Below are positions 2,572 through 4,794 of a stretch of DNA of 64,000 nucleotides, in pieces. This DNA comes from a virus. Lineage: Duplodnaviria; Caudoviricetes. The stretch lies in IMG/VR virus record IMGVR_UViG_3300010429_000387, positions 64,001-128,000 of that record; one strand, written 5' to 3'. Below the pieces are notes generated by a model that saw nothing but the letters and a program-made list of their open reading frames with translations, made no database searches and was not told the origin of the DNA. The first letter of the stretch is position 1. Each line of letters begins with the position of its first letter. Position numbers and translations under genes: made by a program.

Positions 2572-2735
2572 CACGATGAATGACCGTAAGGACTACATCC
2601 AATCCTAATGGGGTGGTCACAGGGTTCGATTCCCTGTTCCCGGAACCAAGCTCTTGACCCAGGTCGAGGGTTTGGTTCCGGGATAGCTCAGTGGTAGAGC
2701 ACCTAAAAGTTGTCTTTGCACCACTTGTCATCGTG
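2572..2735 (+). ncRNA. Y-RNA-like scaffold copy 5 with circularly permuted tRNA (CCT anticodon-like loop)
   Basis: CACGATGA-ATG...CTTG-TCATCGTG; inside, a T-arm precedes a closed acceptor hairpin and then D-arm TAGCTCAGTGGTAGAGC. Confidence 0.78.
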
Positions 2736-2782
2736 AACTCTTTCAGGTGTCAGACCCCGACCGGGTCAGGCGTCTGGTAGTC

Positions 2783-2889
2783 GAAGGCCGAATGAAGCTG
2801 GGTCTACAACCTGCCAACCATAGGACTGGGAGGTTCGATTCCTCTCCGACGGGCTGGTGCCCTTGACTCATCACCACTTGTCGGCCTTC
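2783..2889 (+). ncRNA. Y-RNA-like scaffold copy 6 (T-arm cargo)
   Basis: GAAGGCCGA-ATG...TGGGTC-TACAA...GGAGGTTCGATTCCTCT...GACTCA...CTTG-TCGGCCTTC. Confidence 0.7.
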
Positions 2890-2898
2890 ACAATTTCT

Positions 2899-2973
2899 CT
2901 GGGTGTGGCTCAACCTGGTTAGAGCACTTGACTGGGGGTCAAGGGATTGCCGGTTCAAATCCGGCCACCCAGA
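2899..2973 (+). tRNA. tRNA-Pro(GGG)
   Basis: CTTGA-CTGGGGG-TCAAG. Confidence 0.9.
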
Positions 2974-3128
2974 CTATAAGGCCAGCATTGATCATCCACC
3001 TCTTCGGAGGTGGGCTGGCTGAATCACCGAACTTCGCCGTGAGTTCGGGCATCTTGCCGTAGACCCCGTTGCAAGCAGCGGATAGAGGCAAGCTCTGGGT
3101 ACCTGGAAAACCAGGCGTAGCGGCTCAT

Positions 3129-3215
3129 GCTCGGATGCTGGAACTTGGCAGACAGGCCGGTCTCAGAAGCCGGTGCCCTAGTGGCGTGGGGGTTCAAGTC
3201 CCCCTCCGAGCACCA
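3129..3215 (+). tRNA. tRNA-Leu(CAG)
   Basis: Loop CTCAGAA; near-duplicate body of the 2265 tRNA-Leu. Confidence 0.9.
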
Positions 3216-3305
3216 TGCCCCCTGGAGCCGGGTCGTAGACCCGTTGGGGCGTCGAAAGGACGCAGATCCAGGTAGCTTGCCTCCGGCTATAAACGGGGGT
3301 TCCAT

Positions 3306-3379
3306 CGGGGTGTGGCTCAGCCTGGTAGAGCGCTCGGTTCGGGACCGAGAAATCGGCGGTTCAAATCCGCCCACCCCGA
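3306..3379 (+). tRNA. tRNA-Pro(CGG)
   Basis: CTCGG-TTCGGGA-CCGAG. Confidence 0.92.
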
Positions 3380-3401
3380 CCGATCTGGTGTAGATCAGAT
3401 C

Positions 3402-3698
3402 GACCCTCGAATGCCGGTTTGGAGTACATCAACATAACGACCTTAAAGTAGCGATGTTCCCGTGAGGGACTAGCGATGGCACCAGAGCCCTAAGCGGTAA
3501 CACGCCGGGCCAGAGACTCCTCGACCAGGGCAACCTGGTATCGAGATCCCCCAGGACCAGGAACGCCTGGTAGCAAGGTGACTCTCGTGAGTCAAAGGTG
3601 CGGGACGAGCGGTCACTTGAAAGGGCTATCAGCCCTTCTCATAGTGGTAATGCGTAGGTGGGCGAAAGCCCTTCTCTGAGCCAAACTTGTCGATGGTC
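3402..3698 (+). ncRNA. Y-RNA-like scaffold copy 7 with ~240-nt multi-hairpin cargo
   Basis: GACCCTCGA-ATG..GGTTTGGAG-TACAT...CTCTGAGCC...CTTG-TCGATGGTC. Confidence 0.65.
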
Positions 3699-3703
3699 AC
3701 TAT

Positions 3704-3785
3704 GCGAAGGTGGCGGAATGGCAGACGCACTAGCTTGAGGTGCTAGCGGGTAACTCCCGTGGGGGTTCGAGTCCCCCTCTTCGCA
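3704..3785 (+). tRNA. tRNA-Leu(GAG)
   Basis: CTAGC-TTGAGGT-GCTAG. Confidence 0.92.
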
Positions 3786-3786
3786 C

Positions 3787-3940
3787 TGTCGTGAATGATC
3801 CGAGGACTACAATGGAAATCTCTCACTCGTAAGGGTATGTGGGTTCGAGTCCCACCATCTCGGGGCAACCTGGGGTGTGGCGGAATGGCAGACGCAAGAG
3901 AAGCCGCAAGGCTTGAAGTCTTCAACCACTTGTCACGACA
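3787..3940 (+). ncRNA. Y-RNA-like scaffold copy 8 with circularly permuted class II tRNA (GGA)
   Basis: TGTCGTGA-ATG...CTTG-TCACGACA; TGGAAA-TCTCT, variable arm, T-arm, closed acceptor, D-arm GGCGGAATGGCAGACGC, AGAGA. Confidence 0.8.
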
Positions 3941-3946
3941 AATTAC

Positions 3947-4019
3947 CACGGATTAGCCTGGTGGTCAGGCGCTCGGCTCTGGGACCGAGTCAACGATGGT
4001 TCGAGCCCATCATCCGTGA
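3947..4019 (+). tRNA. tRNA-Pro-like with 8-nt anticodon loop (CTCTGGGA)
   Basis: CACGGAT/ATCCGTG acceptor, CTCGG/CCGAG stem closing 8 nt. Confidence 0.7.
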
Positions 4020-4051
4020 CAAGGTACCCACCGCCTTCAAGGGTGGGGCAT

Positions 4052-4125
4052 CAGGGTGTACCTCAACCTGGTAGAGGGTCGGCTTTGGGTGCCGAACGTT
4101 GCTGGTTCAAGTCCAGTCACCCTGA
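4052..4125 (+). tRNA. tRNA-Pro(TGG)
   Basis: TCGGC-TTTGGGT-GCCGA. Confidence 0.9.
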
Positions 4126-4131
4126 CAATTT

Positions 4132-4218
4132 GGAAGGTGAACCGTACAGGGTACGGCCTGGCCTCGAAAACCAAGGGCACGTCGAGAGGCGTGTGGGATT
4201 CGACTTCTCCGCCTTCCG
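4132..4218 (+). tRNA. tRNA-Ser(CGA), 8/4 fold
   Basis: GGAAGGTG/CGCCTTCC, T-stem GGGA/TCTC, long variable arm. Confidence 0.8.
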
Positions 4219-4290
4219 CCGGGAGACGAGTTCCTGACGAGGCCCTTCCCTCGGGAAGCCCCTTCTCAGATACTCGTTCCCCATTCACAT

Positions 4291-4374
4291 GGAAGCTGAC
4301 GGGTGTGTGGACGCCCAATCGGTTGCTACCCGATCTGCACCGCAAGGTGAGAGGTTCGACTCCTCCTGCTTCCG
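4291..4374 (+). tRNA. tRNA-Ser(GCT), 8/4 fold
   Basis: GGAAGCTG/CTGCTTCC (one mismatch), T-stem GAGG/CCTC, ATCGG-TTGCTAC-CCGAT. Confidence 0.8.
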
Positions 4375-4384
4375 CTGTTCGTTT

Positions 4385-4471
4385 GGAAGGTAACGGCTGT
4401 GTGGACGGCCACCCGCCTGGAAAGCGGCGTATGCCTCAAAAGGGCATCTGGTTCGACTCCAGTACCTTCCT
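4385..4471 (+). tRNA. tRNA-Ser(GGA), 8/4 fold
   Basis: GGAAGGTA/TACCTTCC, T-stem CTGG/CCAG, loop CTGGAAA. Confidence 0.82.
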
Positions 4472-4473
4472 CT

Positions 4474-4547
4474 GTGGCCGTAGCTCAAAGGTAGAGCGCC
4501 TGGTTGTGGCCCAGGTGGTGTGAGTTCAATTCTCATCGGTCACCCCA
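4474..4547 (+). tRNA. tRNA-His(GTG)
   Basis: CCTGG-TTGTGGC-CCAGG, C73-CCA; the base before position 1 is T, not G. Confidence 0.9.
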
Positions 4548-4580
4548 ACCACAACCTTCTGGTGTAGATCAGAAGGTCAT

Positions 4581-4653
4581 GTCCCAGTAGTTCAGTGGAT
4601 AGAGCGTCAGTTTCCTAAACTGAAAGTCGCTGGTTCGAGTCCAGCCTGGGACG
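4581..4653 (+). tRNA. tRNA-Arg(CCT)
   Basis: TCAGT-TTCCTAA-ACTGA. Confidence 0.92.
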
Positions 4654-4654
4654 C

Positions 4655-4794
4655 TGCGATGAATGACGTGGAGACTACAATACCAACCTAGATGTCGTGG
4701 GTTCGAGCCCCACCGTTCGGCCCGGAAGGGTCGGGCGTAGCTCAGTTGGCAGAGCGCCAGGCAAAAACCGGTCCCTACACCCCTTGTCATCGCA
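4655..4794 (+). ncRNA. Y-RNA-like scaffold copy 9 with circularly permuted tRNA (ACC)
   Basis: TGCGATGA-ATG...CTTG-TCATCGCA; TACCAA-CCTAG, T-arm, acceptor closed by a GGAA-capped hairpin, D-arm TAGCTCAGTTGGCAGAGC, CCAGG. Confidence 0.8.

Follow-up and report, generated by a model that had tools for sequence, protein, structure and literature searches.

Three circularly permuted tRNA-like RNAs in a phage tRNA array, probably unspliced YrlA-type mimics

Three tRNA-like elements on a common scaffold

The window analyzed here, 64,000 nucleotides (nt) long, comprises bases 64,001-128,000 of the virus record IMGVR_UViG_3300010429_000387, which is complete at 407,078 nt and has direct terminal repeats. 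It carries a tRNA array in which ARAGORN called 47 tRNAs (2 of them pseudogene-like) and a tmRNA around three elements, here termed copies A, B and C, that an earlier note had described as circularly permuted tRNAs enclosed in a shared scaffold. All three are present, each closed by a 7-8-bp terminal stem, and in each the permuted order reported in the note is found: the 3' tRNA half, an acceptor closed by a hairpin, and then the 5' half. Coordinates refer to the window unless the phage genome is named.

2572-2735, + strand: copy A, a YrlA-type RNA with an intact anticodon stem-loop and a putative Ro60 handle between tRNA nt 28 and 29; Rfam 41.5 bits; re-permuted, tRNA-Arg(cct); orthologues at loci L193, L198 and L306
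2599-2613, + strand: copy A nt 29-43, a 3-bp local stem with a 7-nt loop (2602-2608); nt 42-43 pair with 2702-2703
2638-2683, + strand: copy A acceptor, a 7-bp stem and A73-CCA (2645-2648) inside a 21-22-bp hairpin, from the inverted repeat and fold
3787-3940, + strand: copy B, a candidate permuted class II tRNA mimic with a Leu-type core; re-permuted, tRNA-Ser(gga); 8 parsed homologues including copy B
4655-4794, + strand: copy C, a candidate permuted class I tRNA mimic; Rfam YrlA 34.2 bits; re-permuted, tRNA-Gly(acc)

About 12 unannotated RNAs of the array are built on a common scaffold: the terminal stem is followed by GAAUG and by an inner stem that ends ahead of TACA, and the variable cargo then precedes ACUUGU. 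GAAUG accompanies the terminal stem in the three elements, all of which have U for the C of the GNCGAANG motif, with compensation; the first G of the YrlA terminal motif is C in copy B. The elements contain a permuted tRNA module (T-arm, loop-closed acceptor stem, D-arm), and the best Rfam match is YrlA, at 2573-2737 (41.5 bits) and 4656-4796 (34.2 bits). The virus, a jumbo phage, also encodes a Ro60/Rsr protein of 566 amino acids (phage genome 38,948-40,648), with a TROVE domain above the cut-off and vWA_Ro60.

When the elements were re-permuted in silico, ARAGORN called all three as tRNAs, namely Arg(cct), Ser(gga) and Gly(acc), while shuffled controls gave 0/1000 calls for each element. Scaffold copies with other cargo, circularized alike, yielded no tRNA call except for a degenerate cloverleaf at 7556. 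Because the shuffled and other-cargo controls were silent, we take the tRNA likeness to be real. Many alternative joins of the elements are also accepted as tRNA by ARAGORN.

The earlier note had placed the scaffold within the anticodon loop of all three elements. For copy A this proved incorrect, as the scaffold is inserted in the anticodon stem at nt 28/29. CCA at 2599-2601 pairs locally with 2609-2611, closing an intact 7-nt loop (2602-2608) that has the triplet CCT at 2604-2606 and a non-canonical A32, and nt 27-28 (2702-2703) alone come from the far side. This model gives a perfect 5-bp stem, compared to 4 of 5 pairs under the join drawn in the note. The two models are nearly equal by folding energy (-71.0 vs -70.5 kcal/mol), which does not discriminate between them, and we chose stem insertion because the homologues support it. 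The ACCA noted in the 3' half of copy A is indeed present at 2645-2648, but it is paired with 2673-2676 in the 21-22-bp hairpin.

At 3787 and 4655, the scaffold does open the anticodon loop, with a long-range 5-bp stem, as proposed. In copy B this stem is formed by AGAGA and TCTCT (3897-3901 with 3819-3823), and the Leu-type D-loop and long variable arm are likewise in the sequence. The acceptor is sealed by a GCAA tetraloop (3865-3868), and there is an additional GNRA hairpin at 3902-3913. In copy C, 4 of the 5 stem pairs form (C28-A42 is a mismatch), an ACC loop remnant lies at 4682-4684, and a GGAA tetraloop (4724-4727) seals the acceptor. The join that creates a 7-nt ACC (Gly) loop at 4655 exists in the sequence, but ACC depends on that join: among 110 tRNA-positive joins, 78 gave Phe(aaa) and 4 gave Gly(acc). 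The apparent U33 of copies B and C is the scaffold's own T after TACA, which is also present in 228/286 scaffold RNAs that do not parse as tRNA-like. Both acceptors extend for 9-10 bp into a GNRA loop and have no CCA; because they are sealed in this way, copies B and C cannot be charged.

Homologues and the anticodon loop

Pattern scans of viral, metagenome and genome collections, in which no anticodon was presupposed, recovered 446 scaffold-closed RNAs, among which 113 non-redundant homologues parse as permuted tRNAs. A match to rsr was present in 43/44 bacterial homologue loci, compared to 56/522 other loci, and within sampled homologue neighbourhoods RtcB was confirmed in 6 and RtcA in 1. 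The homologues have three layouts (classes A, B and C), and the window holds one RNA of each.

Class A, which has the layout of copy A (n=47), is found mostly beside bacterial rsr and often rtcB. Its anticodon stem is assembled from two segments: nt 27-28 lie beyond the D-arm and pair with 42-43, and nt 29-31 come after TACA and pair locally with 39-41. When the T-arm is used to set the register, 28/46 show a 7-nt loop on a 3-bp hairpin, and other loop lengths occur 0-4 times each. Position 33 is U in 43/47, position 37 is A in 43/47, and position 32 is a pyrimidine in 40/47; the local pairs are Watson-Crick throughout (141/141). Among 23 representatives of less than 75% identity, the five stem pairs form in 21-23, compared to shuffle means of 9.5-11.7, and the long-range pair 30-40 of the join in the earlier note forms in just one. 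Ten of 17 tested bacterial class A RNAs reach the Rfam YrlA gathering score, and two further class A RNAs, found independently, score 74.9 and 81.6 bits, although the class A anticodon hairpin is not part of the Rfam model and enters the alignment as an insertion. The intact anticodon loop is common in this YrlA-type family, yet it is absent from the published descriptions that we found. In the bacterial loci (L479-L593, many of them Sphingomonadales), rsr operons often have 2-4 tandem YrlA-like RNAs upstream of rtcB, and these mix intact-loop, open-loop and loopless types.

The triplet displayed by class A is of 24 kinds. It is shared in 9 of 94 close pairs, in which nt 33 is shared in 88, and the discriminator base is not coupled to it (9/23, null 9.3). 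Class A loops are identical to real tRNA loops in 31/47 cases, compared to 16.8-24.0 under three nulls, without correction for relatedness. The three closest orthologues of copy A (L193, L198 and L306) have CAT, not CCT.

Classes B (n=8) and C (n=38) share a long-range 5-bp stem and an open loop, and a purine at position 37 is kept in 8/8 and 35/37, respectively. Class B triplets include GGA, GCA, GAA and others, loosely G-N-A-A-A, and within class C, ACC was seen in this window only. The best fixed join giving Y32, U33 and R37 does so in 9/37 of class C and 3/8 of class B. CCT, GGA and ACC are not conserved in orthologues. In Myxococcus phage Mx1 (OR576727.2, L622), two unannotated scaffold RNAs lie at ~8262-8392 and 8613-8722 in a tRNA cluster; the first resembles class C as a permuted tRNA mimic, and its loop remnant reads TCC. 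Mx1 also encodes Rsr and is a cultured, testable model for a class C-like RNA. A BLASTN search against cultured phages returned ordinary tRNAs only, and Rfam sampling of whole clades gave few YrlAs and no good actinophage YrlA.

It is conceivable that the anticodon remnants are relics of an origin from tandem tRNA genes, so that nothing beyond the D/T elbow and Ro60 handle matters, these serving stability and PNPase tethering, and the loops drift. The dimeric-tRNA origin model (10.1101/312249) fits this account, as do the near-saturation of triplet identity among close pairs, the variable length of the B and C remnants, and the many Rfam-grade YrlAs that have no anticodon remnant at all. However, loop length, U33, A37, and a two-part stem with compensatory changes are kept in class A across phyla and phages, and class A loops match real isoacceptor loops above shuffled ones. 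We give the relic explanation a modest chance; it fits B and C better than A.

The CCA at positions 74-76, present in 24/47 class A, 4/38 class C and 0/8 class B RNAs, bears on a second alternative. In copy A alone, RNase P might open the acceptor, perhaps once the long hairpin has been cut through both strands, and trimming to CCA would then give a two-piece, chargeable tRNA that carries the Ro60 handle on its anticodon stem and requires no ligation. In M. smegmatis, RNase P cleaves YrlA, which acquires CCA in vivo (PMC4201824), and a 7-bp acceptor with N73-CCA is found in copy A, its three orthologues and the CCA-bearing half of class A. Nevertheless, in copy A and in the three orthologues, which keep the long acceptor hairpin, the CCA is paired inside that helix. 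There is also an extra pair in the T-stem, discriminator and triplet do not correspond, and half of class A lacks CCA. We consider this opening of copy A unlikely.

Processing, the tRNA array and the proposed role

Each element lies directly downstream of an ordinary tRNA:

2497-2569, + strand: tRNA-Phe; 2-nt gap to copy A, with a probable shared precursor and presumed co-transcription
3704-3785, + strand: tRNA-Leu(GAG); 1-nt gap to copy B
4581-4653, + strand: ordinary tRNA-Arg(CCT); 1-nt gap to copy C
4385-4472, + strand: ordinary tRNA-Ser(GGA), elsewhere in the array

Copies A, B and C begin 1-2 nt past nt 73 of these tRNAs (2569, 3785 and 4653), which suggests that they are released from a precursor shared with the upstream tRNA. 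A stretch of 20 bases in the D-arm region is identical between tRNA-Leu(GAG) (3710-3729) and copy B (3877-3896), and this identity suggests a recent duplication or gene conversion.

The earlier note had also raised the possibility that the elements are precursors matured by cutting and ligation, in which case the scaffold would be excised, the anticodon arm ligated and the acceptor opened to give working tRNA-Arg(CCU), Ser(GGA) and Gly(ACC). The complete cloverleaves obtained from all three on re-permutation favor such a scheme. So do the A73-CCA of copy A, which is in register, with CCA in 24/47 class A, and the CCA-adding-type enzyme and RlaP encoded by the phage. A similar possibility was raised in Wang 2018 (10.1101/312249). 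On the other hand, neither a tRNA splicing endonuclease (PF01974) nor RtcB was found in the phage genome, and the junctions showed no bulge-helix-bulge when the predicted folds were inspected. In classes C and B, a canonical loop is not recovered for the majority of members by any one fixed join, triplets differ among orthologues, and copy A would require ligation within a stem. Identity elements do not match either. In E. coli, Arg identity needs A20, and Gly identity needs G1-C72 and U73; copy A carries U20, copy C has U1-G72 and C73, and copy B has a Leu-type A15-U48 core beneath a Ser triplet. Finally, the ordinary tRNA-Arg(CCT) and tRNA-Ser(GGA) of the array would make matured copies A and B redundant, and three ordinary Gly tRNAs are present, leaving no decoding gap. 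Failing on enzymes, junction structure, join position, triplet conservation, identity elements and need, cut-and-ligate maturation is highly improbable. True permuted tRNAs in a bacterial phage would matter more, if real, but the evidence stands against them.

Other searches of the phage genome concerned related enzymes. A weak RNA-ligase match is an NAD-dependent DNA ligase; a search with T4 Rnl1 gave no match, with its control likewise silent. A Band-7 protein was not found in the phage genome.

Assembled contigs, of low depth, from four activated-sludge or wastewater RNA runs were also consulted. No re-ordering of A, B or C appeared among the joints listed, in contigs of low depth that capture tRNA-size products poorly, and one contig (depth 4.3) spans 3797-4186 unbroken and with no differences. 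Because these contigs show neither ends nor strand, see small products poorly, and may include DNA, they are no evidence for or against re-ordering. One run has a joint from 3185 to 2323, but its ends lie in a pair of tRNA-Leu genes that are almost the same, and we regard it as an assembly artefact.

Given the family context and the literature, we think it very probable that the three RNAs are unspliced YrlA-type tRNA mimics. Their architecture, the Ro60/Rsr gene in the genome, the family relationship, and the lack of a conserved anticodon identity are established; the role is inferred. The RNAs would be cut from a long transcript of the tRNA array through processing of the tRNA directly upstream, and the phage Rsr would clamp the terminal GAAUG/ACUUGU stem, leaving the opposite end to fold as a tRNA L-shape. 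On its class I body, copy A would then expose an anticodon loop that is intact. Copies B and C would look like tRNAs opened at the anticodon, of class II with a Leu-type core for copy B and of class I for copy C. In this way, host proteins that recognize tRNA, such as anticodon nucleases, RtcB/RtcR repair or sensor proteins, or PNPase, might be held on the Ro60 ring. Several published observations are consistent with such a mechanism. A phage Ro60 binds its own Y RNAs and host PNPase (PMC12135203), the ppl defence is countered by a phage Ro60-like protein (PMC11482910), the rsr-yrlBA-rtcBA operon is induced by nicked tRNAs (PMC10159003), and the TROVE proteins of jumbo phages have been counted among RNA-repair platforms (PMC7824862). 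The earlier note's other suggestion, that the elements are mimics of cleaved tRNA, gains support from the presence of YrlA-type RNAs in a phage with Ro60/Rsr and from the likeness of copy B to an engineered nicked-tRNA mimic.

Several points weigh against this interpretation. All three elements fall below the Rfam YrlA (RF02553) gathering cut-off of 69 bits, and copy B (3787-3940) has no Rfam YrlA match at E<=5. The elements lie 25.9 kb downstream of rsr on the same strand, not within ~4 kb of it, and, as stated, RtcB was not found in the phage genome. Relatedness is not accounted for in the shuffle tests, and the local hairpin served to define class A, although U33, A37 and CCA did not. The loop remnant of classes B and C ranges from 3 to 10 nt, with only R37 clearly kept. 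The loop of copy A, with its A32, matches no real tRNA loop in the comparison set, and from these two features it may be drifting.

Taking these points into account, we put the explanation as a whole, that of unspliced, Ro60-bound, YrlA-type mimics serving as bait or adaptor, at a probability of roughly 65%. By analogy with the systems above, a specific bait or repair-adaptor role in a conflict over tRNA damage can be suggested tentatively, at somewhat short of even odds. A broader proposal is rather doubtful. It would have a widespread YrlA subclass, including copy A, represent a full tRNA into whose anticodon stem, on the 5' strand, a Ro60 handle has been grafted, with an intact, exchangeable loop that acts as bait tuned to local anticodon nucleases, openable and chargeable in CCA-bearing members. 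In this phage, the subclass would be joined by mimics of already nicked class I and class II tRNAs as a panel on one Ro60 against tRNA-targeting defence.

The remaining scaffold copies and a tRNA-like gene of the array are as follows:

2783-2889, + strand: sister copy of the scaffold holding just the 3' half of a tRNA (T-arm and GCC loop remnant, D-arm absent); Rfam YrlA 25.6 bits
3402-3694, + strand: sister scaffold copy with conserved non-tRNA cargo, also in L076, L087, L151/L162, L191, L271, L306 and L359
7556-7684, + strand: sister scaffold copy enclosing a degenerate, unpermuted cloverleaf (ARAGORN pseudo-tRNA 7582-7653)
1179-1246, 1971-2109, 2189-2259, 2352-2492, 8381-8483 and ~14908-14975, + strand: further scaffold copies
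3947-4020: tRNA-like gene whose anticodon loop has 8 nt (ARAGORN 'ctgg', marked as a possible pseudogene); possibly a frameshift suppressor or a decayed tRNA-Gln/Pro

Cargoes among the sister copies range over short hairpins, a T-arm only, a 3' half only, and an unpermuted cloverleaf, and several copies have clear orthologues in related phages. The 3402-3694 cargo has no Rfam match, and a likeness to an RNase P specificity domain was not supported, nhmmer giving no match in either direction. In two RNA runs, contigs from this copy had depths of 275.8 (3394-3611) and 57.6 (3467-3690), compared to ~2-10 for neighbouring phage contigs, contig depth being a poor measure of expression. Two related HNH-like open reading frames lie inside the array, at 6989-7570 (+) and 12165-12749 (+), the former overlapping tRNA-Gly 7481-7554 at its 3' end. 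Outside the window, ~3 kb upstream of rsr, are two tRNAs with CUA (amber) anticodons (phage genome 35,459-35,532 and 35,791-35,867). The closest cultured Rsr is that of Myxococcus phage Mx1 (41% alike); because bacterial Rsr proteins of many phyla are 41-50% alike, no host was inferred. In a related 363-kb phage contig (the record of L193; G277 1804-3492), the Rsr homologue has one in-frame TAA, which reflects either a broken gene or an assembly error.

Comparison with known systems

YrlA was defined by Chen 2014 (PMC4201824), who located it within 4 kb of rsr and reported that a 'V' stem-loop, less conserved, precedes the T-arm; this stem-loop may correspond to the class A anticodon hairpin. 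Among the traits that mark YrlA are Rsr binding, pseudouridine 55 and dihydrouridine. Wang 2018 (10.1101/312249) described YrlA with an anticodon stem but without the loop and suggested that some YrlAs are perhaps processed like permuted tRNAs. In the papers searched, we found no description of an intact, variable anticodon loop in YrlA. The elements resemble YrlA (RF02553; PMC4201824; 10.1101/312249) in their Ro60-type terminal stem, GAAUG, ACUUGU and conserved CUAC, in the order of T-arm, loop-closed acceptor and D-arm, in the anticodon stem that spans the module ends, in the Rsr encoded by the genome, and in the adjoining tRNAs. They differ in scoring below the Rfam cut-off (41.5, no match and 34.2 vs 69 bits), in the U that takes the place of the C in GNCGAANG, and in lying 26 kb from rsr. 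Unlike published YrlA, which has no loop, copy A has an intact loop and copies B and C have loop remnants, and copy B departs further in its Leu-type core, long variable arm and additional GNRA hairpin. The contrast drawn in the earlier note, that the anticodon arm is retained unlike in classical YrlA, therefore holds for the loop when set against published descriptions. It does not hold for the stem, which classical YrlA has, nor for the family, in which 10/17 class A homologues reach the Rfam YrlA score. Compared to M. smegmatis YrlA (PMC4201824), a 7-bp acceptor stem is shared and copy A encodes N73-CCA, but the CCA of copy A is paired in a 21-22-bp hairpin, and in B and C a GNRA loop caps the acceptor at 9-10 bp.

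Circularly permuted tRNA genes occur in red and green algae and in Thermofilum (Soma 2007, Maruyama 2010 and Chan 2011, as cited in 10.1101/312249). Like them, the elements have the 3' half first, a loop-closed acceptor, and a full cloverleaf once re-permuted. Unlike them, they have no bulge-helix-bulge, splicing endonuclease, conserved triplet or decoding gap, and a conserved Ro60 handle replaces the leader and trailer. A bulge-helix-bulge junction or tRNA splicing endonuclease has not been reported in bacteria (10.1101/312249).

The Thermus phage phiLo also encodes a Ro60 and several Y-like RNAs (Yrl1/Yrl2), and its Ro60 binds the Yrl RNAs and dampens host PNPase (PMC12135203). The excerpted text describes no tRNA module for Yrl1/Yrl2 and nowhere contains the word anticodon, in contrast to the ~12 scaffold copies with varied cargo seen here.

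Since 2014, models in print for the partner of the YrlA tRNA module have considered the D/T elbow only. A conserved, canonical class A loop whose triplet differs between close relatives points instead to proteins that read the anticodon, such as nucleases, modification enzymes or repair sensors, and the occurrence of all three layouts within a single phage tRNA array would connect Ro60 ribonucleoproteins with phage defence against tRNA damage. A close parallel to copy B is a tetraloop-capped permuted tRNA-Leu that was engineered as a nicked-tRNA mimic and is an RtcR ligand (PMC10159003). Copy B is natural, its ends run into the Ro60 handle, and it would have no free 2',3'-cyclic phosphate unless cut; like the engineered RNA, it has a Leu-type body, a tetraloop-capped acceptor, and an opening in the anticodon loop.

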